Part shown: in pieces, positions 11,282 to 36,630 of the stretch
How the letters are laid out: each line of letters starts with the position of its first letter
Numbering within the stretch: the first letter of the stretch is position 1
Source: a virus
Strand: one strand, 5' to 3'
DNA length: 64,000 bases
Virus record (IMG/VR): IMGVR_UViG_3300049783_001607
Position numbers and translations under genes: made by a program
Notes under the pieces: model-generated
Told to the model about the DNA's origin: nothing
Seen by the model: the letters and a program-made list of their open reading frames with translations, nothing else
Database searches by the model: none

Positions 11282-11803
11282 TTAAAATCCTAAATAAGCT
11301 AATTCAGAAGCAAAATCTTCATAAACAACTAAATTTTGTTTGTAATTATCGTTATCTAGTTCTACAAAATTAAAATTTTTACTGATGTCTGTAATAGTTT
11401 TCATACTTTCACTAACATCAATCCCAGTTTCTTTTTCAATTATTTTTAAACAGTATAAAAACTGATCTACATTACCCGTTCTTAAATAATCTATACCTTT
11501 TTCAAATGTAAATAAAGTACTATGACTTATACCAAAATTTATTTCTTTAGCTCTCCTACCTCTGTTATATATATTATCGAGAGTAAATGGTTTATCCATA
11601 AGCTCACATAAAGTATTAGTAGCAGCACAACCATAGCACACATCTTTTTTAATTAACCCAAAAAAATAAGATTTTTGTTCTATTTCTCCAAAAGTATTCA
11701 TGTTTATTTCAACCCACTTTTTTCTTATTCCTGCTACCATAGCAAATATAATACTAGAAACTGAGTCTATGTTTTCAAATATCCCTTTATTTTCACTTTT
11801 CAT
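11282..11803 (-). CDS. CxGCAATNTLC tandem-array paralog
   Basis: CYGCAATNTLCELM motif. Confidence 0.85.
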   Translation of the reverse strand: MKSENKGIFENIDSVSSIIFAMVAGIRKKWVEINMNTFGEIEQKSYFFGLIKKDVCYGCAATNTLCELMDKPFTLDNIYNRGRRAKEINFGISHSTLFTFEKGIDYLRTGNVDQFLYCLKIIEKETGIDVSESMKTITDISKNFNFVELDNDNYKQNLVVYEDFASELAYLGF

Positions 11804-11828
11804 TTTTTATACTATTTATAGTTATTGA

Positions 11829-12317
11829 TTAATGACCTGTTGATTTTAATAGTAAGGCAAGATTTTCATAATTAATTAAACCTGTTTTAAAATCATCATC
11901 TTGTAATATTGGTAAATAAAATCCCTGTGAAATTTTTAAAATAGCTCCTATATCAACAGAAATACCTATTTCTTTTTTTAATCCTGATAAAGAATGTACA
12001 AATTCATCTACATCCCCTTGTCTAAGCCTGTCTAAAGCACGTTCAAATCTCATTAAAGTATTTTTAGATATTCCAAAATTTATTTTATCAACCCTTTTAC
12101 TTAAACTTGATATATTACTTGCATTAAAAGGTTCTCCCATTAATTGACACAAAGTATTAGTAGCAGCACAACCATAGCATATTTTTTGTGAGCTTACGTC
12201 TCCATAGGTTTGCATTGCAACTCTTACCCACTCCTTTTTTAGTCCTTCTGTCATAGCTAATATTACGTCAGAAACTGAGTTTATATTTTCAAATAAACCT
12301 GTATATTTTTTAGTCAT
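11829..12317 (-). CDS. CxGCAATNTLC tandem-array paralog
   Basis: CYGCAATNTLCQLM motif. Confidence 0.85.
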   Translation of the reverse strand: MTKKYTGLFENINSVSDVILAMTEGLKKEWVRVAMQTYGDVSSQKICYGCAATNTLCQLMGEPFNASNISSLSKRVDKINFGISKNTLMRFERALDRLRQGDVDEFVHSLSGLKKEIGISVDIGAILKISQGFYLPILQDDDFKTGLINYENLALLLKSTGH

Positions 12318-12340
12318 GTTATAGTATTTTTAATGTTGAA

Positions 12341-12838
12341 TTAATAGCCTTCTTTTTTTAATTCCGTGCCAAATTTTTTATAGTAATGCAAATTTGCTTT
12401 AAAATTTTTATCATTTAAAGAAGGTAATTGAAATAAAGCGCTGAATAACATGATTTTTTCAAATTGAGTAACAAATCCCAATTCGTTTTCTAAAACGGTA
12501 GTATAAGATAAAAATTCAATTATAGATCCTTGTCTAAGCTTATCTACAGCACGTTCAAATCTCATTAAAGTTTCTTCAGATATTCCAAAATTTATTTCTA
12601 TAGCCCTGCCTTCTAAACTATTTATGTGGCTAGACTTAAAAGGTTTTCCCATCAATTCACATAAAGTATTAGTAGCAGCACAACCATAGCATGTTGTATT
12701 TTTATTACCCATTGTTGACGCACCAAAAGTGTACATTTTAACATTTACCCATTCTTTTTCCAACCCTGCTACCATGGCTAGTATTATGTCAGAGACTGAA
12801 TGTATGTTTTCAAATAAACCTGTATATTTTTTATTCAT
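12341..12838 (-). CDS. CxGCAATNTLC tandem-array paralog
   Basis: CYGCAATNTLCELM motif. Confidence 0.85.
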   Translation of the reverse strand: MNKKYTGLFENIHSVSDIILAMVAGLEKEWVNVKMYTFGASTMGNKNTTCYGCAATNTLCELMGKPFKSSHINSLEGRAIEINFGISEETLMRFERAVDKLRQGSIIEFLSYTTVLENELGFVTQFEKIMLFSALFQLPSLNDKNFKANLHYYKKFGTELKKEGY

Positions 12839-12856
12839 TTCGTAATATTTATAGTG

Positions 12857-13345
12857 TTAATAACCGTTTTGTTTTAATTCATTTGCGAATTGCTCATAAT
12901 AAATTAAATCCGTTTTATAATTTGAATTTTCTAGTCTAGGTAAATTAAAGTCTATATAAATAGATTTAATTTTTTTTAATTCTACAACGAAACCAATTTC
13001 TTCTTCAATCTCTGATAACGCCTCTAAAAATGTTATTATACATCCTTTTCTAAGGCTATCTATACACTCTTCAAACATTCTTAAATTTCCTGAAGATATC
13101 CCAAAATTTACTTGTTCTGCTCTCCGGTCTAAATTTATTATATTACTTGCATTAAATGGTTTATCCATTAATTGACACAAGGTATTAGTAGCCGCACAAC
13201 CGAAACATATTTTATCAGTAGTTACACCTCCATAAGTATTCATATCAACTTCAACCCATTCTTTTTTTAATCCTTTTATCATTGAAAATATAATATCTGA
13301 AACTGAATTTATTTTACTGAATATTCCTTTTTGTATTGCAGCCAT
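12857..13345 (-). CDS. CxGCAATNTLC tandem-array paralog
   Basis: CFGCAATNTLCQLM motif. Confidence 0.85.
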   Translation of the reverse strand: MAAIQKGIFSKINSVSDIIFSMIKGLKKEWVEVDMNTYGGVTTDKICFGCAATNTLCQLMDKPFNASNIINLDRRAEQVNFGISSGNLRMFEECIDSLRKGCIITFLEALSEIEEEIGFVVELKKIKSIYIDFNLPRLENSNYKTDLIYYEQFANELKQNGY

Positions 13346-13368
13346 TTTGTAATATTTTTAATGTTAGA

Positions 13369-13857
13369 TTAAAGTCCTTCTTTTTTTAATGCACTCGCTA
13401 ATTGCTCATAATAAATTAAATTCGTTTTATAATTTGAGTTTTCTAATTTTGGCAAATTAAATTCCATACAAATAGACTTGATTTTTTCTTCTTCTATAAC
13501 AAAACCAATTTCGTCTTCGAGGCTTGATAAGTAAAGTAAAAATGTTATTATACATCCTGTTCTCAAGTTATCTATAGATACTTCAAACCGTCTTAAAGTA
13601 TGTGTAGATATCCCAAAATTTACCTCTTTTGCTCTTTCGTGTAAACCTATTATATTATCTACAGTAAATGGTTTATCCATTAATTGACATAAAGTATTTG
13701 TAGCAGCGCAGCCAAAACATACTTCATCATCAGTTACACTTCCAAAAGTATCCATATCAACTTCTACCCATTCTTTTTTTAAACCGTGTATCATAGCAAA
13801 TATAATATCTGAAACGGAGTTTATGTTCTTAAATATCCCTGTTTGTATTTTATCCAT
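13369..13857 (-). CDS. CxGCAATNTLC tandem-array paralog
   Basis: CFGCAATNTLCQLM motif. Confidence 0.85.
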   Translation of the reverse strand: MDKIQTGIFKNINSVSDIIFAMIHGLKKEWVEVDMDTFGSVTDDEVCFGCAATNTLCQLMDKPFTVDNIIGLHERAKEVNFGISTHTLRRFEVSIDNLRTGCIITFLLYLSSLEDEIGFVIEEEKIKSICMEFNLPKLENSNYKTNLIYYEQLASALKKEGL

Positions 13858-13879
13858 TTGTAATATTTTTAATGTTAAA

Positions 13880-14365
13880 TTAAAGCCCTTCTTTTTTTAA
13901 TTCAGCAGCAATTTTTTCATAGAAATGCAGATTTTTTTTATAATCGTCAGTATCTAATTCTGGTAAATTAATTTTATTCATAATGCTGATAAGTCTGTCC
14001 GTTTCAATTTTTATACCGATTTCTTTTTCAATTTCTATTAAATGATGTATAAATTCCCTACTTCTTCCTAGTCTTAAATTATCTAAAGACATTTCAAATA
14101 CTTTTAAAGTGTACCAATCAATTCCAAAATTTACTTTTTCACGTCTACTTTTTAGGTTGTTTATATTACTTGCATTAAAAGGTTCTCCCATTAATTGACA
14201 CAAAGTATTAGTAGCAGCGCAACCGAAACATACTTTTTTATATACAGCTCCATAAGTTTGCATATCAATTTTTACCCACTCTTTTTTTAATCCCTCTGTC
14301 ATAGCTAGTATTATGTCTGAGACTGAATTTATTTTACTGAATATACCTGTTTGTATTGTATTCAT
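13880..14365 (-). CDS. CxGCAATNTLC tandem-array paralog
   Basis: CFGCAATNTLCQLM motif. Confidence 0.85.
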   Translation of the reverse strand: MNTIQTGIFSKINSVSDIILAMTEGLKKEWVKIDMQTYGAVYKKVCFGCAATNTLCQLMGEPFNASNINNLKSRREKVNFGIDWYTLKVFEMSLDNLRLGRSREFIHHLIEIEKEIGIKIETDRLISIMNKINLPELDTDDYKKNLHFYEKIAAELKKEGL

Positions 14366-14388
14366 ATTGTAATATTTTTAATGTTAGA

Positions 14389-14874
14389 TTAAAGCCCTTC
14401 TTTTTTTAATGCTTCTGCAAATACTTCGTAATGTCGTAAATTGATTTTATAATTTTCATTAGTTAATATTGGTAAATAAACTTTATCCGCAATAACCATA
14501 ATTTTTTCTTCTTCGATTTTTATACCAGTCTTTTTCTCAATTTGTTCTAAACAGTATAAAAAATCTTCAGTTCTTGCTTCTCTTAAATGATCTAAACCCA
14601 TTTCAAAGTTTCCTAAAGTATGGCTATCAATCCCAAAATTTACTTTTTTACGTCTGGATTGTAGGCTAATTATATTATTTTCATTAAAAGGCTCTCCCAT
14701 CAACTCACATAAAGTATTAGTAGCTGCACATCCAAAACATAGATTATTTTCTTCATATCCGTAACTTTGCATATCAACATTTACCCATTCTTTTTCTAAG
14801 CCTCGGATCATTGTAAATATTATGTCAGAAACTGAATTTATTTTACTGAATATGTTTTCTTGTATTGTATCCAT
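14389..14874 (-). CDS. CxGCAATNTLC tandem-array paralog
   Basis: CFGCAATNTLCELM motif. Confidence 0.85.
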   Translation of the reverse strand: MDTIQENIFSKINSVSDIIFTMIRGLEKEWVNVDMQSYGYEENNLCFGCAATNTLCELMGEPFNENNIISLQSRRKKVNFGIDSHTLGNFEMGLDHLREARTEDFLYCLEQIEKKTGIKIEEEKIMVIADKVYLPILTNENYKINLRHYEVFAEALKKEGL

Positions 14875-14902
14875 TCTGTAATTATTTTTTTTTAGTGTTA
14901 GA

Positions 14903-15412
14903 TTAATACCCTTCTTTTTTTAAGTCTAAAGCAAATTCTTTATAGATAGGCAGATATTCTTTAAAATCTTCATTGTATAATATTGGTAAATGATATGTGC
15001 TGCTAAAGCATAAGATTTCTTCAACTTTTACAGCAAACCCTAGTTCTTTTTCTAGTGCTTTTATATGCGATAAAAACCAGTCTATATCTCCCACTCTTAA
15101 CTTATCTACTCCTTGTTCAAATCTATATACAACATCTGAAGGGATACCAAAATTTACTAGAGAAGCTCTTTCTTCTACGCTGTGTATATTACTGGAATCA
15201 AAAGGTTTTCCCATCAATTGACATAGAGTATTAGTAGCTGCACATCCAAAACACATATTTTTTTCATTAGCTATTGTCTCACCAAACCTTGTTGTACCAT
15301 AGGTTTCCATATCAACATTTACCCATTCTTTTTCTAAGCCTGCTACCATAGCAAATATAATATCTGAAATTGAGTGCACATCTTCAAATAAACCTGTATA
15401 TTTTTTATTCAT
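14903..15412 (-). CDS. CxGCAATNTLC tandem-array paralog
   Basis: CFGCAATNTLCQLM motif. Confidence 0.85.
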   Translation of the reverse strand: MNKKYTGLFEDVHSISDIIFAMVAGLEKEWVNVDMETYGTTRFGETIANEKNMCFGCAATNTLCQLMGKPFDSSNIHSVEERASLVNFGIPSDVVYRFEQGVDKLRVGDIDWFLSHIKALEKELGFAVKVEEILCFSSTYHLPILYNEDFKEYLPIYKEFALDLKKEGY

Positions 15413-28683: not shown

Positions 28684-30174
28684 TTATTTTTTATATATTA
28701 GTCCGCCTTTTATAGAATTTTTTATATTATCACTATCGAAGAACCCTTTTTTATTTACAAGGCTCTTGGTATACTTAGGCGCAGCAAACATAGTAAAATT
28801 TGAATCTAGCTGCTCAGTATTAAATTGAGGCTTATATATCCTAGCGGCATTTGCTTCAAGCGCTCTTTTACTTGCATCTTTAAATATGTTTAAATTTTCA
28901 TCTATATCATAATCAAGTTTTCCATGAGATAAAAAAGGCCTGCCATAAAAGTTCTCTACTTTTCTTCCATTAAGGTTTAGATCCCAAATATCGTTATATT
29001 CCATCTTACCTTTATAAAATCTTCTGTTATAATTTCCCATTATATTAGTGGTATTAAAATCAACGGAACTATCAATTCCTTTCTTCTTTATATCCTCTAA
29101 CTGTTTAATATCTTTTAGATAATGAGGCATAGTTCTATTTTGGTCTTTCATTATCATATCCATACCAGGTAGTCGTTTATCAGGCAATTCTTTAAGTAGT
29201 TGTTTTTCCCTATTTATAGAGAAAATTTCCCTATTATTTAATTCACCTTTATTGTATAAAGGATGGTTTTTAGGGGCTGATCCAGCTACTCTAAAAGTAT
29301 TGTTTTTTTGTGGTATACCAGAATATAAATTCCAGGCGTCTTGTCTAGGTTTTGATATAACATCCGCACCTCTGTGAAGGTCATCTGCTAATGTAGGATA
29401 CATATCAACTAATTTTTTAGAGTTTTTATCCCCTTTTATTATTCTTTTAGGTATATTTAATAATCTTTTTGTAGCATTCTCATAACCATAAGGGGTCATA
29501 TAATCTGTCATTACCTCGGAAACCCCTGGAAAATAGCCTTTTCTTTGCGCTGAGGTAATACCTATTTTGCTCATTTGCATATCTTTAATATCCTCTAAAC
29601 TATAACCAGCTTTAAGACCTTCTGACTGTATTTGTCTCAGCTCTTTACCTACAGGATGAAAAGTATCTACGGTTTTTCTTAATGGTACCCGAGATTTTTT
29701 TATAAATGCTTTTGAAGCGCTTGTTATTGCTTTTTTAGCTAGGGGTATTGGTATTACACCTGCAGCACCTTCTAGAATTTGCATCCCATCTAAAGTTGCA
29801 GTACCTTGAATAACGTTTTTAGTGTCATAAGCATATTGAGCAGGGTTGACCACATCTAGAGCATAGTCTAGCGTATTTCTTGGGCCTCTTGAAAAATTAT
29901 CAGGTAAGTCTTTATTTCTAGCAGCATAACCTGCGGCTGTTAGAGGATTGAGCGCTATCTCAATAATCTTACTAAAAAAACCTTGTTTAGGCTCTGAAGG
30001 TCTTATTGATTGACTATTAGCGCTATCAGTCATAGCCTGTATGTTTGACTCCTTTCTTGTATTAGCTATATAGTCTAAAACAGATTGCTCGTCTTGTTTA
30101 GATACTATCTCTCTTGTTTTAATTCCTACTTGAGCCTTAATCGCTTTACCTTTATTTTTATCGTAATATATCAT
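28684..30174 (-). CDS. Hypothetical protein, probable virion cargo
   Basis: N-terminal KAQVG and C-terminal KGGLIYKK motifs; GTATTATATA directly upstream. Confidence 0.7.
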   Translation of the reverse strand: MIYYDKNKGKAIKAQVGIKTREIVSKQDEQSVLDYIANTRKESNIQAMTDSANSQSIRPSEPKQGFFSKIIEIALNPLTAAGYAARNKDLPDNFSRGPRNTLDYALDVVNPAQYAYDTKNVIQGTATLDGMQILEGAAGVIPIPLAKKAITSASKAFIKKSRVPLRKTVDTFHPVGKELRQIQSEGLKAGYSLEDIKDMQMSKIGITSAQRKGYFPGVSEVMTDYMTPYGYENATKRLLNIPKRIIKGDKNSKKLVDMYPTLADDLHRGADVISKPRQDAWNLYSGIPQKNNTFRVAGSAPKNHPLYNKGELNNREIFSINREKQLLKELPDKRLPGMDMIMKDQNRTMPHYLKDIKQLEDIKKKGIDSSVDFNTTNIMGNYNRRFYKGKMEYNDIWDLNLNGRKVENFYGRPFLSHGKLDYDIDENLNIFKDASKRALEANAARIYKPQFNTEQLDSNFTMFAAPKYTKSLVNKKGFFDSDNIKNSIKGGLIYKK

Positions 30175-30295
30175 ACCTATATAATACTAAATATTATTGA
30201 TTACTAAAAGCTTAATGTTAACCTATTTAAGGTAGTATCTAAACACTTCCTTGTAGGGGCTCTATAAGTACACTGATAATCAACACGTTATAGAA

Positions 30296-30345
30296 GGTTG
30301 AGGGTCAAAAGTTACATGTTTGAGGGTCAATTACTGCAGGTTTTA
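30296..30345. repeat. Iteron-like repeats GAGGGTCAA, second cluster
   Basis: ggttgagggtcaaaagttacatgtttgagggtcaattactgcaggtttta. Confidence 0.65.
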
Positions 30346-30359
30346 TTTATAAAAATATA

Positions 30360-30725
30360 CTATCTAACAAATTTACTATTTACTTCGTGTATTCTATTAA
30401 CAAGCCAGCCTAGTAGATAGCATTCTGCCTCATCATTATGCCTGTCTAGCAGCTGATCAACGTCTATAAATATTTTATTTACTAAATGTTTAGCTTCGTG
30501 TGCAATTATACCTGGAGTAGGATATTGCTTACTAGACGCATAAAAACAGCAATAGTGATGGTTGTTTAAAGTATATACAAACCCATCATATTTTCGGTGG
30601 TTAAATTCTAAATAAATATCCTTTTTTTTAAAGAATTTATCTAGTTTTTTAGGAGAAGAGTAAACAATCACTGTGAAAGTAAGACCATACAAAGGAGTAC
30701 GAAAATTTTTTTTTAGTAGTTTCAT
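30360..30725 (-). CDS. Small HExxH metallopeptidase-like protein
   Basis: IIAHEAKH...EAECY; TACCTTTG promoter directly upstream. Confidence 0.7.
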   Translation of the reverse strand: MKLLKKNFRTPLYGLTFTVIVYSSPKKLDKFFKKKDIYLEFNHRKYDGFVYTLNNHHYCCFYASSKQYPTPGIIAHEAKHLVNKIFIDVDQLLDRHNDEAECYLLGWLVNRIHEVNSKFVR

Positions 30726-30854
30726 ACTTCAAAGGTAACAATTAAAAATTAAAGTAGTATCTTTATAGAAAGAAATACTTTGCGCCAACCGGGCATGTAT
30801 CGCTACCTTCTCGTTGGACACTATAGCCTCTATTTATTTAGAGGCTATTTTTTG

Positions 30855-30930
30855 TGGGATGAGTAAGAATCGAACTTACGCAATGTCGCTGGGCTTCAAC
30901 CAACCGCTCTACCAACTGAGCTATCACCCC
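30855..30930 (-). tRNA. tRNA-Phe(GAA)
   Basis: Cloverleaf; anticodon loop TTGAAGC. Confidence 0.92.
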
Positions 30931-30940
30931 ATTATTTTTG

Positions 30941-31014
30941 CGCGGCCGGAGAGACTCGAACTCCCGACACCTGGTTTTGGAGACCAGTGCTCTGGCCAAC
31001 TGAGCTACACCCGC
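30941..31014 (-). tRNA. tRNA-Trp(CCA)
   Basis: ctggt-CTCCAAA-accag. Confidence 0.93.
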
Positions 31015-31025
31015 ATTTATTATTG

Positions 31026-31099
31026 AACGTCTGATGGGACTCGAACCCATGATCTTTCAGATTTGCAGTCTTTTTCCTTAGCCGCTCGGACACAGACGT
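31026..31099 (-). tRNA. tRNA-Cys(GCA)
   Basis: Loop CTGCAAA, U73. Confidence 0.9.
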
Positions 31100-31111
31100 A
31101 TTTAATAATAG

Positions 31112-31186
31112 CTCCTTAGGTTGGACTCGAACCAACAACCCCCGCATTAACAGTGCGATGCTCTAACCAGTTATAGCTACTAAGGA
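31112..31186 (-). tRNA. tRNA-Asn(GTT)
   Basis: tcgca-CTGTTAA-tgcgg. Confidence 0.93.
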
Positions 31187-31325
31187 ATATTTATATATTT
31201 GTAAACATAAAGCCAGTTCATATGAGGCTACAGAAACATCATCTATATCTTTAGCCCAAGTAACTATACCGTTAGGTAACACCACTTTTAAAAACCCGTC
31301 TTCTTGTTTAGTTATAATCATATTG

Positions 31326-31410
31326 TAGAAAGAAGAGGACACGAACCCCAAGGTATTACCCTCCCACTCCTTAGCAAGGAGGCCCAGTACGCCTGCCTGG
31401 TTTACTTTCT
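31326..31410 (-). tRNA. tRNA-Ser(GCT)
   Basis: ctcc-TTGCTAA-ggag, long variable arm. Confidence 0.85.
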
Positions 31411-31416
31411 ATTTTG

Positions 31417-31499
31417 CAGAGAATAAAGGAATCGAACCCTCAAGTATAACCTTGGCACGGCGTTCAAAACCGCTTATGCACCGCTGCATGCTACTCTCT
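31417..31499 (-). tRNA. tRNA-Ser(TGA)
   Basis: gcggt-TTTGAAC-gccgt, long variable arm. Confidence 0.87.
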
Positions 31500-31504
31500 A
31501 ATTG

Positions 31505-31594
31505 TGGGAATGATAGGATTCGAACCTATAATGGGGTCTTTCAACACCTACAGATTTACAGTCTGCTCGCTTCAGCCAATTTGCATACACGCCC
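31505..31594 (-). tRNA. tRNA-Tyr(GTA)
   Basis: gcaga-CTGTAAA-tctgt, long variable arm. Confidence 0.92.
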
Positions 31595-31604
31595 GATTTA
31601 AAAC

Positions 31605-31636
31605 AAAAAAAAAGACCCATTAATTAAAATGAGCCT
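31605..31636 (-). terminator. Attenuator terminator of tRNA operon C
   Basis: AGGCUCAUU/AAUGGGUCU stem plus long U tract, about 10 nt before tRNA-Tyr. Confidence 0.85.
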
Positions 31637-31661
31637 CTAGTTTGGTTGTATATTTTCTTAA

Positions 31662-31736
31662 TTACCCAAATAGCTCATCTGATCCGTTATAAAACGAATT
31701 ACAGAAATTACTATATGACCAACTTGTTACTTTCAC
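31662..31736 (-). CDS. Leader peptide C, MKVTSWSYSNFCNSFYNGSDELFG (GTG start)
   Basis: 13 consecutive codons for Ser/Trp/Tyr/Asn/Phe/Cys, the tRNAs downstream. Confidence 0.88.
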   Translation of the reverse strand: MKVTSWSYSNFCNSFYNGSDELFG

Positions 31737-31758
31737 TGTATTATTATTATTTAAGATG

Positions 31759-31766
31759 CAAATGTA
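31759..31766 (-). promoter_or_regulatory. -7 promoter element of tRNA operon C
   Basis: TACATTTG matches Bacteroidota TAnnTTTG. Confidence 0.8.
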
Positions 31767-31830
31767 CTACTTTATTTGTAATTATAAAAGAAAAAAATAC
31801 TTTTAATGGTTATTATTGCCTTGGGCTCCC

Positions 31831-32025
31831 TTAGTGATAGGGATAATTGTCATAAGTATCTTGGAAATACGATTGCCAAATAACCTGTTCTGTAGTAGTA
31901 ATAAGCTTAAATTTTTTCCAGGCCCCTTTGGGAAAAAGCTCTTTTACTGTATTAACTACATCAGCTATATTTGTACTTTCGGTAACTTCGATAGTTTTTT
32001 TTGTGGTATCTATTGTTAATTTCAT
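31831..32025 (-). CDS. Hypothetical protein
   Basis: 64 aa ORF coupled to 32022..32348. Confidence 0.65.
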   Translation of the reverse strand: MKLTIDTTKKTIEVTESTNIADVVNTVKELFPKGAWKKFKLITTTEQVIWQSYFQDTYDNYPYH

Positions 32026-32348
32026 TTATTTAAAAGTTTGAATGCTTTTTCTAAATCTATAAAAAAAATTAAAGGTTTATCCCCTATCAAAGTAGAATGC
32101 ACTTCATCTGAAAGTCGATTTTTGCTAAATTCAACACTGCCAGAATGTATGTCCCATTTAATTGAATTAATTGATTCTTTTCTTTGAATATAAGTAGCAG
32201 ATCCAGAAGAGTCTACATATTCAATCTCATCTTCTCTTTCGTATATTCTAAGCGAGCCTATTGGCATTTTAGTGTTTTGATTTTTAAAACTATTATCAAA
32301 GACTATAGTAGATAATGTTTCCGTCTTTCTTATTTGTTTATTTTTCAT
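32022..32348 (-). CDS. Hypothetical protein
   Basis: 108 aa; TACCTTTG promoter 4 nt upstream. Confidence 0.7.
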   Translation of the reverse strand: MKNKQIRKTETLSTIVFDNSFKNQNTKMPIGSLRIYEREDEIEYVDSSGSATYIQRKESINSIKWDIHSGSVEFSKNRLSDEVHSTLIGDKPLIFFIDLEKAFKLLNK

Positions 32349-32427
32349 AAATCAAAGGTAGTAAAAATAATGTTAACATGCAATAAGACAGCATTGTAAC
32401 CTGTATTTTACTATTTTAAATACTAAG

Positions 32428-32505
32428 TGGTCCTGGAGTGAATCGAACACTCATGTGACCTAGTTACGATTTCAACTGATTATGAGTCAGAGCCGATACA
32501 GGACC
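32428..32505 (-). tRNA. Atypical tRNA(CAT), probable Ile2 (lysidine), lacking a D-arm
   Basis: Perfect GGTCCTG/CAGGACC acceptor, GAGTG-TTCGATT-CACTC T-arm, ctga-CTCATAA-tcag. Confidence 0.7.
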
Positions 32506-32513
32506 TTAATTAG

Positions 32514-32587
32514 AAGAGGTAGAGGGATTCAAACCCCCAATCGGCAGGATAGAAACCCGCTGCGTTATTCAGTTACGCCATACCTCC
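32514..32587 (-). tRNA. tRNA-Arg(TCT)
   Basis: gcggg-TTTCTAT-cctgc. Confidence 0.88.
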
Positions 32588-32631
32588 ATTACATAGTTTT
32601 AAGTAAATTTAGGTAACTACAGACCTAGTTG

Positions 32632-33108
32632 TTATCCATGTATTTCTTTTAGTTTGGCTGAAGATAAAAGTACCATAACTAGTATTTCAGCTAATAAAAA
32701 AGATATATAATCTGTAAAATAACCTATAACAAATACGCTTACTGCTGAAATAACTACTGCAATACCTACTTTTTTATCTAAAGATGTCTCCCTGTTCCAT
32801 AACAGTGTAAAACAAGCTAATAAAATTGTAACTACAGTAACTATATTATGTAAACTTGTATGTTTATACATATCAAAAGCTAAAATTAATCCCATACCTA
32901 AAGCTAATAGATATTCAGTAGCGTATTTTTTTACTCGTGCATTCAAAAGAAAAAACCAAGAAGCAGTCAAGTGCATTAAATTATAAAATACATTATTATC
33001 AGCCGTAGCGTAAGCACTTAAAGAAGTTAAATCTTCTCCTCTTGTAACCCATATAAGAGCTGAAAATAAAATAGATAATAAAAGCAATATTGTTTTTAAC
33101 AGTTTCAT
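32632..33108 (-). CDS. Multi-pass membrane protein inside tRNA operon B
   Basis: About 6 hydrophobic segments. Confidence 0.75.
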   Translation of the reverse strand: MKLLKTILLLLSILFSALIWVTRGEDLTSLSAYATADNNVFYNLMHLTASWFFLLNARVKKYATEYLLALGMGLILAFDMYKHTSLHNIVTVVTILLACFTLLWNRETSLDKKVGIAVVISAVSVFVIGYFTDYISFLLAEILVMVLLSSAKLKEIHG

Positions 33109-33194
33109 AGTAATATAAGTTTAGTTTGAGTAAAAATACAACAATTAGCTGTAAATTCAAAGTTACTTTGCAATGATTAAATTTATTATTTTTG

Positions 33195-33267
33195 TACAGT
33201 GGGTAGGAATCGAACCTACGACATCTTTCGTGTAAAAAAAGCGCTACTACCGCTGAGCTACCACTGC
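33195..33267 (-). tRNA. tRNA-Val(TAC)
   Basis: ctttt-TTTACAC-gaaag. Confidence 0.88.
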
Positions 33268-33359
33268 AAGTAGGACCAATTATTTTATTAATCGGTCCCG
33301 ATAAAAGACCTATTTTGGGACACTTCAAAACTTCACGAGAGGTGTAATAGGTACTGTTG

Positions 33360-33432
33360 ATCCCAAGGTCAGGTTCGAACTGACGACATGCTCCTTACAA
33401 AAAAGCCGCTCTACCAACTGAGCTACTCGGGA
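33360..33432 (-). tRNA. tRNA-Thr(TGT)
   Basis: gcttt-TTTGTAA-ggagc. Confidence 0.88.
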
Positions 33433-33525
33433 ATGTCAAAGCTAAGGTATTCTCACGTCGATCGTTACCTATAAGGATGATAGCCCCTTGCTTTGATAGT
33501 TGTCTAGGATATCGCCTAAACTCTG

Positions 33526-33600
33526 CAGTCTATACGGGATTCGAACCCGTGATCTCCGCCGTGACAGGGCAGCGTCCACTCCTGGCTGGACCGATAGACT
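33526..33600 (-). tRNA. tRNA-Asp(GTC)
   Basis: ctgcc-CTGTCAC-ggcgg, G73. Confidence 0.93.
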
Positions 33601-33659
33601 ATTTGTGCCCTATCTAAAACCCTTTCCGGGAAAAGCCGCTGAGCACGTCTTAATTCTTG

Positions 33660-33732
33660 TGGCGAGAGAGGGATTCGAACCCCCGACCTGATGGTTATGA
33701 GCCACCCGAGCTGGCCACTGCTCTATCTCGCT
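33660..33732 (-). tRNA. tRNA-Met(CAT), initiator-like
   Basis: 1:72 mismatch, GAGC/GCTC D-stem, loop CTCATAA. Confidence 0.88.
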
Positions 33733-33741
33733 ATATTTTTG

Positions 33742-33813
33742 TTGCGACGATGGGATTTGAACCCATGACCTAGTAGATATGAACCACTTGCTCTACCTCT
33801 GAGCTACATCGCG
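33742..33813 (-). tRNA. tRNA-Met(CAT)
   Basis: agtgg-TTCATAT-ctact; C1:A72 mismatch, so initiator vs elongator is ambiguous. Confidence 0.85.
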
Positions 33814-33950
33814 ATATGTTTATACAATAAATCTTCTTCGTTTTTTCCAGGTTGCACGTTTCGATTTGTTAAATAAAAAAGAGTTATCTCTTCTAACTTC
33901 TTCTCTAGTTTTTACTTGTTCACTCATTTTCTTACTTTATTAATTATTTG

Positions 33951-34024
33951 TGCAGGATGCGAGGATCGAACTCGCTCTGTTCTAGATTGGAAGTCTAGCG
34001 CACCACCACTTATGCGTATCCTGC
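33951..34024 (-). tRNA. tRNA-Gly(TCC)
   Basis: ctaga-CTTCCAA-tctag. Confidence 0.92.
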
Positions 34025-34270
34025 GTTTGTTGGAACAGATGGATTTGAACCGCCGACATTCGTAGTATCAGTACGATGCTCTACCCCTGAGCTATGCTCC
34101 ATTATTTCTTTTCTTACTTCTTCATCTAAAAATTTTTTGTTCTTATTTTTTCTAGCTTCAAGTCCTATACCTTGACAATACCAGCAGTTACATTCATACC
34201 TTCTTTCTAGCTCTCTTTTACTATCAGTATACTTTTTATTAAATTTATTTTTTCTATATGTTCTACTCAT
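34010..34270 (-). CDS. Small basic CxCxxC protein within tRNA operon, reading through tRNA-Ile
   Basis: MSRTYRK...CNCWYC. Confidence 0.6.
   Translation of the reverse strand: MSRTYRKNKFNKKYTDSKRELERRYECNCWYCQGIGLEARKNKNKKFLDEEVRKEIMEHSSGVEHRTDTTNVGGSNPSVPTNAGYA
34030..34101 (-). tRNA. tRNA-Ile(GAT)
   Basis: tcgta-CTGATAC-tacga. Confidence 0.92.
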
Positions 34271-34282
34271 AATTAAATTTTG

Positions 34283-34354
34283 TGCCTCTGGCCAGTACTG
34301 ATCTGGCGGTCCTCTGTTTAAAAGACAGATGCTTTACCATTAAGCTACAAAGGC
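34283..34354 (-). tRNA. tRNA-Lys(TTT) with atypical T-loop
   Basis: tctgt-CTTTTAA-acaga; T-loop ATCAGTA. Confidence 0.85.
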
Positions 34355-34514
34355 AATATCCCCTGCAACTAGTCAGGAGTAATTAACGTTTAAACTTCTT
34401 AATAAATTTTTTCATAATTTTTAACGGTGAAATGTTTGCTCCACTAAATCTCATACTATTAGCAGAAAATAAATATTCATGTTTGTTCATATCATTATAA
34501 TTTAGTTAATGTTG

Positions 34515-34587
34515 TGGAATCGGAGGGAATCGAACCCTCAGGACTGTCGTTGCAAACGAAAGTGTCTAGCCAATACAACACGACCCC
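34515..34587 (-). tRNA. tRNA-Ala(TGC)
   Basis: G3.U70, loop TTTGCAA. Confidence 0.88.
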
Positions 34588-34589
34588 AT

Positions 34590-34621
34590 AAAAAAAGCTC
34601 CTATCTTTCGAAAGGAGCTTT
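34590..34621 (-). terminator. Attenuator terminator of tRNA operon B
   Basis: AAAGCUCCU/AGGAGCUUU stem, GAAA loop, U tract, 2 nt before tRNA-Ala. Confidence 0.88.
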
Positions 34622-34643
34622 ATGTTGTTTGTAATGTTTTAAA

Positions 34644-34724
34644 TTATCCACATATAACGTCCTTCCAAAGAGCTTGATCTCTCCCTGTTTTAACCGTAAC
34701 CGCTATGTTCATAATTGTTTTCAT
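34644..34724 (-). CDS. Leader peptide B, MKTIMNIAVTVKTGRDQALWKDVICG
   Basis: 15 of first 16 codons read by the 11 downstream tRNAs. Confidence 0.88.
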   Translation of the reverse strand: MKTIMNIAVTVKTGRDQALWKDVICG

Positions 34725-34755
34725 TGAAAATTGTTCTTTTTTTTACTATTGGTTG

Positions 34756-34763
34756 CAAATGTA
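34756..34763 (-). promoter_or_regulatory. -7 promoter element of tRNA operon B
   Basis: TACATTTG. Confidence 0.8.
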
Positions 34764-34810
34764 CTTCATTATATTATACTTTCCTAACAAAAAATAAATT
34801 ATTTGTATAG

Positions 34811-34885
34811 AATCTCTCCAGGGACTCGAACCCCGAATCTCTTAGTTCGTAGCTAAGTGCTTTAATCCAATTAAGCTAGAGAGAT
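34811..34885 (-). tRNA. tRNA-Arg(ACG)
   Basis: cttag-CTACGAA-ctaag. Confidence 0.92.
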
Positions 34886-34904
34886 ATTTATAAAGGTAAT
34901 ATTG

Positions 34905-34990
34905 TGCCCAAAGCGAGAGTCGAACTCGCACGACCTTTACAGATCCACAGATTTTAAGTCTGCTATGTCTACCAATTCCATCATGAAGGC
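34905..34990 (-). tRNA. tRNA-Leu(TAA)
   Basis: gcaga-CTTAAAA-tctgt, long variable arm. Confidence 0.9.
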
Positions 34991-35082
34991 ATTATAACGT
35001 CGTCGGGAATCACCTAGCTGCACTCATCTTATCTAGGATTAAAGTTTCGACACCTATCTGCTTATTATTTTCCCAACTATTG

Positions 35083-35168
35083 TGTCTACGAAGGGATTCG
35101 AACCCATAAACTTTTTCAAGAACTGGTTCCTAAGACCAGCGCGTTTACCCAATTTTCGCCACATAGAC
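35083..35168 (-). tRNA. tRNA-Leu(TAG)
   Basis: ctggt-CTTAGGA-accag, long variable arm. Confidence 0.92.
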
Positions 35169-35228
35169 AAATTACGATTTCAAAAACTTCTTGTACAGAA
35201 GATAACCTAATCGTTTGGTTAATTTGTG

Positions 35229-35302
35229 GGTGAAAGCTGGGGCTCGAACCCAGGGCTCCAGGACCACAACCTAGCGCTTTAGCCGGTTAAGCGACAATCA
35301 CC
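35229..35302 (-). tRNA. tRNA-His(GTG)
   Basis: ctagg-TTGTGGT-cctgg; G-1:C73. Confidence 0.9.
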
Positions 35303-35336
35303 ATATAATCTATATATTGTATATATAAATTGATAG

Positions 35337-35407
35337 ATGAGGTAAAGAGGCTCGAACTCTTGATTCGGCCGTCAAAGGGCCGCGTGTTACCGCTACACCA
35401 TACCTCA
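35337..35407 (-). tRNA. tRNA-Gln(TTG)
   Basis: cggcc-CTTTGAC-ggccg; U1-A72. Confidence 0.92.
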
Positions 35408-35418
35408 TTATTACATTG

Positions 35419-35490
35419 TACTGCGACGGAGAATCGAACTCCGGTTACCAAGGTGAAAGCCTGGCGTCTTAGCCACTGGACGACCGCAGC
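35419..35490 (-). tRNA. tRNA-Glu(TTC)
   Basis: ccagg-CTTTCAC-cttgg. Confidence 0.92.
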
Positions 35491-35523
35491 ATATTTTATA
35501 TCCGCTCATGATATAAATTATTG

Positions 35524-35600
35524 TCTAAGAAGTGAGAATCGAACTCACGAATCTCTTGTTTCCAAAACAAGCGGGTTCTTCCGTCTGCCCTAGCCCCTAG
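35524..35600 (-). tRNA. tRNA-Pro(TGG)
   Basis: cttgt-TTTGGAA-acaag; C1-G72, A73. Confidence 0.88.
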
Positions 35601-35615
35601 AATTTATTATAAACT

Positions 35616-35645
35616 AAAAAAACCTTCTAAATTAATAGAAGGTTT
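35616..35645 (-). terminator. Attenuator terminator of tRNA operon A
   Basis: AAACCUUCUA/UAGAAGGUUU stem plus U tract, 15 nt before tRNA-Pro. Confidence 0.88.
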
Positions 35646-35674
35646 CTTTATGTGTTTAATTATGACAGTTAAAT

Positions 35675-35758
35675 TCAGCCAAGATCGAGTACAAGATTCC
35701 TTCCATTGATTAACAACGGTTGTTCCAGTAATTCGATATGACGTAATGATCTGTTCAT
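35675..35758 (-). CDS. Leader peptide A, MNRSLRHIELLEQPLLINGRNLVLDLG
   Basis: 11 of codons 5-16 read by the 7 downstream tRNAs. Confidence 0.88.
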   Translation of the reverse strand: MNRSLRHIELLEQPLLINGRNLVLDLG

Positions 35759-35762
35759 ATTG

Positions 35763-35770
35763 CAAATATA
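35763..35770 (-). promoter_or_regulatory. -7 promoter element of tRNA operon A
   Basis: TATATTTG 4 nt before leader ATG. Confidence 0.8.
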
Positions 35771-35838
35771 CAATTATAGTTTAATATATAACTAATAAAA
35801 GAAAAATATTTTGTATATTTATCGATTAAAGACTTATT

Positions 35839-36630
35839 ATGGCCGATAAACCTAACAGAATTAAAATTGATACTCATAGAGGGAAAGAAAATACTGCTTT
35901 CGGTAAGCATTCAAGAGTACCTTTTAATATAGAAGATCTTGATTCTAGAAGTCTTTTAATCCTAGCTTTTATAGACATCGATCAATTTTTAGACTCGAAA
36001 TTTAAAACTAAAAACATTAGACGAATTATAAGACTGGAGGATTTTTCTTTTACTTTAGGTGTAAGTAAAAACACGGTTAAAAAGTGTTTAAAAGAATTGG
36101 AGACTAAAGAGTTAATAACTTCTACATATAAACACAGTGTAGGTACTTCGTATATATCTAATATAGTCAAACTGCATGTAAAATATCAAATAATAACTTA
36201 CTCATTTATTTCTAGACAGGATTTATCTCATTCAGTAAAAGCTTTTATATTAAAGGTTATAATGCTTGGAGAAAATAGAATATCTAACATACGAAACGTT
36301 ACAGCTTTAGTAAAAGAAACTAGTACTCCAAGAAGAAAAGTAAATGAAGTTTTGGACTCTTTGTTATTGCAAGGATATATATTGGATCATCCTACAGAAA
36401 AGTCAATTCAAATATTGGATGTATCTGGTATAATGTTAGATTCGGAAGAAAAGTTAATGCTTGAACACAGACAATTAAGAGAAGCCATATCTTTTTATGA
36501 AACTAATCTTCCTACTTTTAGTGAAGATGATACAGAAGAGATTTCTAGATTAAAGTCTGAAGTAGGGAGACTACTTAAAAAAATAGAAATGATCCAAAAT
36601 GGCAAAAGTAAAAATCATAAAAAGACATAG
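35839..36630 (+). CDS. Winged helix-turn-helix DNA-binding protein (replication initiator/regulator-like)
   Basis: LGVSKNTVKKCLKELETKELI HTH; second HTH-like segment; C-terminal coiled coil. Confidence 0.65.
   Translation: MADKPNRIKIDTHRGKENTAFGKHSRVPFNIEDLDSRSLLILAFIDIDQFLDSKFKTKNIRRIIRLEDFSFTLGVSKNTVKKCLKELETKELITSTYKHSVGTSYISNIVKLHVKYQIITYSFISRQDLSHSVKAFILKVIMLGENRISNIRNVTALVKETSTPRRKVNEVLDSLLLQGYILDHPTEKSIQILDVSGIMLDSEEKLMLEHRQLREAISFYETNLPTFSEDDTEEISRLKSEVGRLLKKIEMIQNGKSKNHKKT

Follow-up and report, generated by a model that had tools for sequence, protein, structure and literature searches.

The minus-strand unit ahead of the first block of tRNA genes in this phage (unit A) is most likely a ribosome-mediated leader-peptide transcription attenuator that senses the supply of the tRNAs encoded by its own block, with a probability of about 80%. 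The phage probably makes these tRNAs only when ribosomes read the leader codons slowly. The anatomy of the unit, the match between its codons and the tRNA block, its conservation in relatives, the co-variation of its parts and the competing folds in silico were all observed. An attenuator had been proposed in the initial annotation of this DNA. Consistently, all of the unit A elements described there are present on the minus strand at the positions listed in Table 1, and the reading is supported by the conserved parts in six lineages, by ribosome-masked folding and by synonymous changes in the sensing stretch.

The window, which is the whole stretch of 64,000 nt that was analysed, is AT-rich phage DNA (27-36% GC). 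It belongs to a marine crAss-like phage, with a capsid match to the crAss family (PF23898) and a TerL related to those of crAss-like phages. Gene direction flips at about 35.7 kb. ARAGORN detected 22 tRNA genes on the minus strand from 35600 to 30854, in agreement with Rfam, and the array is divided into three blocks (A, B and C) with long gaps between them. tRNA-Pro, starting at 35600 on the minus strand, is the first gene of block A, and the block is followed by a 222-nt gap and then by tRNA-Ala. Unit A sits between tRNA-Pro and the first plus-strand gene, in a divergent gap of 239 nt. Its parts are arranged on the minus strand in the order of promoter-like box, ORF, terminator and tRNA.

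Several other features of this DNA were recorded. Two tRNA-like stretches on the minus strand (31320-31503 and 32428-32512) received no ARAGORN call, and a weak tRNA-Sec-type Rfam match (31418-31499, 24.6 bits) falls in one of them. They are probably long-arm Ser tRNAs and one more tRNA, which would account for an earlier count of 25. Small Lys/Arg/Glu-rich ORFs are found in the gaps of block B (33814-33949, 34102-34281 and 34355-34513, minus strand), with neither a terminator nor a codon-class run. Eight tandem paralogous ORFs of 161-173 aa are arranged head to tail at 11282-15412 on the minus strand.

Table 1. Parts of unit A, its sister units, the tRNA blocks and the A leaders of the six lineages. 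Coordinates are those of the window.
Feature	Coordinates	Strand	Description
-7 box TATATTTG	35763..35770	-	promoter-like; Bacteroidota sigma-A consensus TAnnTTTG
Leader ORF	35675..35758	-	ATG at 35758, 27 codons + TGA (35677-35675); MNRSLRHIELLEQPLLINGRNLVLDLG then stop; translation predicted
Sensing stretch, codons 5-16	35711..35746	-	11/12 cognate to the seven downstream tRNAs
Region 1, CCGUUG	35714..35719	-	5' arm of local hairpin sequestering region 2
Region 2, antiterminator strand AAUGGAAGG	35699..35707	-	codons 18-20, DNA AATGGAAGG
Intrinsic terminator	35615..35650	-	15-bp stem, 6-nt loop, U-run; -16.4 kcal/mol; 5' arm 35650-35636, loop 35635-35630, 3' arm + U-run 35629-35615
Block A	34810..35600	-	Pro(tgg), Glu(ttc), Gln(ttg), His(gtg), Leu(tag), Leu(taa), Arg(acg)
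Unit B	34590..34763	-	TACATTTG, ORF 34724-34644 (MKTIMNIAVTVKTGRD...), terminator 34621-34590; heads block B at tRNA-Ala
Block B		-	Ala, Lys, Ile, Gly, Met, Met, Asp, Thr, Val, Arg(tct)
Unit C	31605..31766	-	TACATTTG, ORF 31736-31662 ((M)KVTSWSYSNFCNSFYN...), terminator 31638-31605; heads block C at tRNA-Tyr
Block C		-	Tyr, two tRNA-like stretches (Ser-like), Asn, Cys, Trp, Phe
A leader, window			MNRSLRHIELLEQPLLINGRN...
A leader, L002			MIKVLRHIELLEQPLQCNGRN...
A leader, L017			MKAILLHIEQPRPLLCNGGTSV
A leader, phi4:1			MKIQRLHLQELEQPIISGGTGV
A leader, Panino			MKTQRLHQELEQPTNIGRD...
A leader, Calle_1			MNARLLHQEPLEQLRLPSRV...

The codons of the leader ORF match the tRNAs behind it. Codons 5-16 are TTA CGT CAT ATC GAA TTA CTG GAA CAA CCG TTG TTA, and each of the seven block A tRNAs has at least one cognate codon within this stretch. 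The initial annotation had listed these codons with 11 of the 12 cognate and all seven tRNAs covered, and its list agrees base for base with the DNA at 35746-35711. The sole sensing codon foreign to block A is ATC (Ile), a block B codon. Because the three blocks together partition the genetic code, every sense codon could be labelled as class A, B or C, and codons 5-16 then read AAABAAAAAAAA. Class A makes up 23% of the codons in the long genes of this phage. In an ORF of equal length with the codon usage of the phage itself, 11 of 12 class-A codons would occur with P of about 5e-6, and none of the 11,453 12-codon stretches taken from the long genes attained this level. A six-frame scan of the whole window found only 5 regions at the 11/12 level, which are the leader and four regions in antisense frames of large genes. 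CGT, CTG and CCG, which make up 7% of the Arg, 3% of the Leu and 7% of the Pro codons, are rare in this phage, and all three occur in the sensing stretch; they are the codons required for sampling tRNA-Arg(acg), tRNA-Leu(tag) and tRNA-Pro(tgg). Chance as the source of the codon match was ruled out by the P value, the six-frame scan and the conservation of the match in other phages.

Blocks B and C are headed by units of the same kind. In each leader of the window, a run of codons has the class of the leader's own block and the other two classes are almost absent. The Arg codon in the unit B leader is AGA, matching Arg(tct). Including the relatives, 17 units from six lineages were compared: the window, L002 (the same phage as L001 and L019), L017, phi4:1/phi17:2, Panino and Calle_1. 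The uncultured relatives L002 and L017 were reached via the neighbouring HTH protein and TerL, and the cultured relatives of other phage groups via tRNA similarity. Among the cultured carriers, Cellulophaga phages phi4:1 and phi17:2 belong to Lightbulbvirus, Cellulophaga phage Calle_1 (L032, NC_062744.1) belongs to Pervagoviridae, and the third is Maribacter phage Panino. The lineages represent three or more unrelated phage groups, with known or probable hosts in the Flavobacteriaceae. TerL-based scans of viral contigs and metagenomes gave two informative array-bearing lineages, L002/L019 and L017, and TerL relatives at 66-72% identity that reach upstream showed no tRNAs in the stretch examined. 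DNA-pattern scans of IMG/VR with the conserved leader core and the shared terminator returned no contigs beyond the lineages already described, and a scan with phi4:1 gp074 matched only phi4:1 itself.

All six lineages retain the ORF with its leaderless spacing and codon-class run, as well as the terminator and the antiterminator segment, despite divergence. The leader ORFs have 22-32 codons, with a start codon at the predicted +1 and a stop; the orthologues of the unit A leader ORF in the five other lineages have 22-29 codons. The A leader sequences have diverged across the six lineages, with the class-A run retained (Table 1). Leader and following block share the same class in 17 of 17 units. 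The block order of Calle_1 is B, C, A, and every leader moved along with its own block.

Some features of the relatives concern the history and annotation of their arrays. All three Calle_1 units have near-identical promoter regions of about 35 nt (L032 2460-2434, 3700-3674 and 5290-5254), units A and B of phi4:1 have near-identical promoter regions of about 40 nt (L005 6410-6362 and 5470-5424), and units A and B of L002 have an identical terminator. Such near-identity of promoters or terminators within one phage suggests that the cassettes arose by duplication. For Calle_1, the tRNA coordinates in the feature table of NC_062744.1 are about 53 nt off the ARAGORN positions, the table misses tRNA-Glu, and two unannotated tRNA-like genes lie right behind the terminators of units B and C (Ala-like at about 5118-5045 and Tyr-like at about 3485-3400). 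ORFs are inserted in the tRNA arrays of L002 (about 3810-3360) and L017 (about 4460-3980). The one in L002 lies between the C terminator and tRNA-Tyr, beside an apparent tRNA fragment; it is Cys/His-rich with an HNH-endonuclease-like look and may be a homing endonuclease.

The substitutions within the leaders follow the decoding of the codons. Between the window and L002, 4 of the 12 sensing codons differ, of which three are synonymous (CGT>CGC, GAA>GAG and TTG>TTA), and the fourth (TTA>CAA) changes Leu to Gln and is still class A. Unlike the sensing codons, leader codons 2-4 are all different between these two phages. The leaders of phi4:1 and phi17:2 differ by CAG>CAA. Changes in the tRNA content are also reflected in the leaders. 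L017 is without tRNA-Leu(taa), Lys and Arg(tct) and has two tRNA-Pro genes; its A leader uses only CTN for Leu (4/4) and contains two Pro codons, and its B leader is without a Lys or Arg codon, whereas all five other B leaders have both. A leaders of phages with both Leu tRNAs always contain a TTR and a CTN codon. The Arg codon is CGN in 6/6 A leaders and AGA in the 5/5 B leaders that contain Arg. There are two exceptions: the L017 A leader retains CGA with no detectable tRNA-Arg(acg), and the Panino B leader has AGA codons although tRNA-Arg(tct) was not found. Judging from these sequences, leader codon choice partly tracks tRNA content.

The synonymous substitutions and the frame-specific codon classes point to ribosomal decoding. 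They argue against a translation-independent RNA switch, in which the leader would bind tRNAs directly in a T-box-like manner, with the triplets as specifiers, and tRNA binding would stabilise the antiterminator. T-boxes do sense tRNA and control tRNA-charging genes, and alternative antiterminator and terminator folds exist in silico for the present leaders. However, in all lineages an open frame runs from a start codon at the predicted +1 to a stop, and twelve different specifiers in succession would be without known precedent. An Rfam scan of 30000-36200 (E<=1) returned tRNAs and noise only, with no T-box, no His, Leu, Thr or Trp leader family and no other match. Direct tRNA binding is therefore very improbable, and a ribosome-read leader is preferred.

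Transcription of unit A is predicted to start at the leader ORF itself. The box TATATTTG is a perfect match to TAnnTTTG and is followed by the spacer CAAT and then by the ATG at 35758, as in the initial annotation, which had placed the ATG 4 nt past the box. The -33 element, for which TTG/TTTG would be expected, is poor (TTAG). In the AT-rich window TAnnTTTG occurs at chance frequency (87 seen versus about 96 expected), so the motif is informative only by virtue of its conserved position. The box and its 4-nt spacing to the ATG are kept in the window, L002, phi4:1 and Panino, and Calle_1 has the variant TATATTTA; the spacing is 4 nt in 5 of the 6 lineages and 5 nt in L017. The dRNA-seq data of Flavobacterium psychrophilum place the sigma-A -7 box at -12 to -5 (PMC9723704). 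This would put +1 on the A of the leader ATG, and the mRNA of unit A is thus predicted to be leaderless. In F. psychrophilum 5.5% of the mRNAs are leaderless, and clues to leader-peptide attenuation upstream of amino-acid operons have been reported in Flavobacterium (PMC9723704); the host family therefore appears able to run the mechanism. A box with the geometry of the unit A leaderless promoter, TAGCTTTG, was also seen at 33444-33437 (minus strand), 4 nt ahead of tRNA-Thr, and could be an internal promoter of block B or a chance occurrence.

A separate promoter for the tRNA genes was looked for downstream of the terminator. The 14 nt between the unit A terminator and tRNA-Pro contain no TAnnTTTG and are too short for another promoter, and the terminator-to-tRNA stretch has no conserved promoter motif. 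The sigma-70-like TATAAT before tRNA-Pro (35611-35606) was rejected as an alternative promoter, since it is without a usable -35, is not conserved in L002, L017 and phi4:1, and is not of the Bacteroidota promoter type.

An intrinsic terminator is present in 17/17 units, with energies of -14 to -25 kcal/mol; the terminator region of Calle_1 unit A is at -25 kcal/mol. In unit A a 24-nt spacer separates the leader ORF from the terminator, which ends 14 nt ahead of tRNA-Pro. The possibility that this hairpin terminates a plus-strand gene was rejected, as there is no plus-strand gene upstream of it; the plus-strand genes begin at 35839 and are directed away from it. For each unit, the leader from the start codon to the terminator was searched for duplexes with the terminator 5' arm and loop. 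In unit A the best leader-to-arm duplex is formed by AAUGGAAGG with CCUUCUAUU of the terminator 5' arm and loop (predicted -13.9 kcal/mol), and 1.3% of the dinucleotide shuffles equal it. This is the 9-bp pairing of codons 18-20 with the terminator arm and loop that had been pointed out initially. In 17/17 units the strongest pairing is found immediately 3' of the sensing run, around codons 17-23, with energies of -9.8 to -23 kcal/mol and shuffle fractions of 0.000-0.17. A Fisher combined P calculated by hand from the per-unit shuffle fractions is roughly 1e-12, with units that are not independent of each other.

The two strands of this duplex change together. Region 2 in the A and B units is a GGAGG/GGAAGG-like copy of the terminator 3' arm. 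The terminators of the C units differ from those of A and B, and the leader segment changes alongside: the duplex is GAUGAGCU with GGCUCAUU in unit C of the window, AGCAAGACU with AGUCUUGCA in unit C of L017, and CAGGAUC with GAUCCUG in unit C of phi4:1. In unit B of Calle_1 it is GGGGAGGAGC with GCCCUCCCC. On the sequence comparison, the duplex segment and the terminator arm co-vary across paralogous and orthologous units. Region 2 of unit A can in turn pair with region 1, and this 1:2 pairing belongs to a long ORF-wide hairpin of -20.6 kcal/mol (predicted). The hairpin closing region 2 is CCGUUG/CAAUGG in the window and CCGUUA/UAAUGG in L002, which is a compensatory change from G-C to A-U, and the equivalent hairpin in phi4:1 and Panino is CCGA/UCGG.

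The transcript up to the terminator loop was then folded in silico with a 28-nt ribosome mask at successive positions. Without ribosome, the ORF hairpin of unit A forms and the terminator 5' arm stays free, with a probability of the antiterminator, P(antiterminator), of 0.30. When the A site is at codons 2-14, the antiterminator forms with P of about 0.7-0.8. When the A site is at codons 15-24, region 2 is covered and P(antiterminator) falls to about 0.3. The outcome was the same for 3' footprint edges of +9, +12 and +15. The A units of the window, L002, L017 and phi4:1 behaved alike: P(antiterminator) was 0.03-0.30 without ribosome, rose to about 0.6-0.9 for A sites around codons 4-13, and dropped once the ribosome covered region 2. 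The initial annotation had depended on a fold that competes with the terminator and had called for folding with and without a ribosome. Such an alternative fold exists in silico, and the expected trp-like logic was reproduced. The full-length transcript at equilibrium always adopts the terminator (P about 0.99), so the switch must be kinetic, like that of trp. The ORF of the window and L002 continues 8-9 codons beyond region 2; with a ribosome halted at the stop codon, region 2 is free and the antiterminator is again predicted by the equilibrium model.

A strong terminator that always wins at equilibrium would also suit a small independent gene, for a micropeptide mRNA or a small RNA, which ends at its own terminator and senses nothing, the tRNAs being expressed by leak or from an unrecognised promoter. 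Public records do call the equivalents hypothetical proteins (phi4:1 gp075/gp076 and Panino CDS0063), and attenuator transcripts can act in trans, as outlined for rnTrpL/peTrpL (10.1101/606483). However, such a gene leaves unexplained the 17/17 match of leader and block, which also holds under the permuted block order, the rare codons that sample specific isoacceptors, and the complement of the terminator arm at a fixed place after the sensing run. It is further disfavoured by the lack of a conserved promoter motif from terminator to tRNA. We consider this possibility unlikely, well behind attenuation.

The sequestering element differs among the units. Without ribosome, region 2 is left unsequestered in silico in the A units of Panino and Calle_1 and in the majority of the B and C units, so the 1:2 element is not universal. 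These units have no predicted anti-antiterminator and, if untranslated, would read through. Because the antiterminator is favoured there without ribosome, a general loss of translation would open them. This would fit a device of the same anatomy whose signal is the global translation status, such as host shut-off, ribosome availability or amino-acid starvation, and which simply times early and late expression. In contrast, a general sensor needs neither block-specific codon sets nor isoacceptor-specific rare codons, and it would not lose TTR, AAR and AGR codons along with the matching tRNA genes. A purely global signal is thus improbable compared with sensing of the block's own tRNAs.

For attenuation by the block's own tRNAs, we infer the TSS, the translation of the ORF, the kinetic coupling and the physiological trigger, and the following scheme is proposed. 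The host sigma-A RNA polymerase would start at the A of the ATG or no more than one to two bases away, giving a leaderless mRNA. A ribosome would translate the 27-codon leader, in which codons 5-16 sample every tRNA species of block A. When an aminoacyl-tRNA is scarce, the ribosome would stall in the sensing stretch and hold the 5' half of the ORF hairpin open. AAUGGAAGG would then be free to pair with the terminator 5' arm, and the resulting antiterminator would allow read-through into the seven tRNA genes. When decoding is fast, the ribosome would reach codons 15-24 and cover region 2, and the 15-bp terminator would form. The terminator would also form when no ribosome is present, as the ORF hairpin would sequester region 2. 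Once formed, it would end transcription 14 nt before tRNA-Pro. Expression of the tRNA block would thus be demand-driven and self-limiting, and units B and C would likewise control their own blocks.

A wider and more tentative reading is that the three attenuators are parts of a 'tRNA-on-demand' system that is modular and horizontally mobile. A cassette, made up of promoter, test ORF, switch and tRNA block, might report the depletion of its own tRNAs, switch on replacements and shut off when decoding recovers, and the cassettes might have been exchanged as units among unrelated Flavobacteriaceae phage families. Under this reading, the depletion could be caused by host anticodon nucleases, other tRNA-targeting defences or phage-induced decay of host tRNAs. 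The purpose of phage tRNA genes and the timing of their use have been under debate for decades; codon compensation and escape from tRNA-targeting defences are the two leading ideas (PMC10264068). If the attenuator is real, the expression of phage tRNAs would be conditional on decoding capacity, and the codon content of a leader would state which tRNA shortages the phage expects. Classical attenuation would be extended to tRNA genes as a new output class, and this would be the first autoregulatory loop in which tRNAs govern their own transcription via the ribosome. Since phage-host pairs with these cassettes are in culture (Cellulophaga baltica with phi4:1/phi17:2, Cellulophaga with Calle_1 and Maribacter halichondriae with Panino), the mechanism can be tested at the bench now.

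Unit A shares its main features with known attenuators. Like the enterobacterial trpL, hisL, leuL, thrL, ilvL and pheL attenuators (pheL: PMC3082878), it has a short ORF with clustered regulatory codons. In both cases an intrinsic terminator lies ahead of the regulated genes, the antiterminator shares the terminator 5' arm, and the position of the stalled ribosome decides the fold, which for unit A is predicted. Sampling of more than one amino acid is known for ilvL and thrL. However, the amino-acid operon leaders regulate biosynthetic enzymes, whereas unit A regulates tRNA genes. The amino-acid leaders contain runs of a single codon, whereas unit A samples seven isoacceptors for six amino acids, most of them only one or two times. 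It also differs from these leaders in being predicted leaderless, phage-borne and set in a Bacteroidota-type promoter context.

T-box riboswitches (RF00230) resemble unit A in coupling tRNA status to a decision between terminator and antiterminator. Uncharged tRNA binds to them directly and no ribosome takes part; they carry one specifier codon and the conserved T-box sequence, and their targets are aminoacyl-tRNA synthetase or amino-acid genes. The leaderless polycysteine short ORFs of mycobacteria, outlined as Cys-responsive attenuators in 10.1101/834739, are similar in that their codon content senses one decoding substrate and controls downstream operon genes. Unlike unit A, the system outlined there senses one amino acid, controls protein-coding genes and is located in a cellular genome. 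A role of phage tRNAs in countering host defences that target tRNAs has been described (van den Berg et al., eLife 2023, PMC10264068). As outlined there, that work gives a rationale for a phage to carry its own tRNAs once host tRNAs are depleted, and it concerns changes of the anticodon loop; the outline mentions neither sensing nor conditional transcription of tRNA genes. A full-text search of the literature gave no description of leader-peptide control of tRNA genes. Compared with these systems, unit A would work like the multivalent leader-peptide attenuators, and what is new is the output of tRNA genes and the sampling of seven isoacceptors by one short peptide. Also new are the predicted leaderless mRNA, the Bacteroidota promoter setting and the modular phage-borne cassettes common to unrelated phage families.
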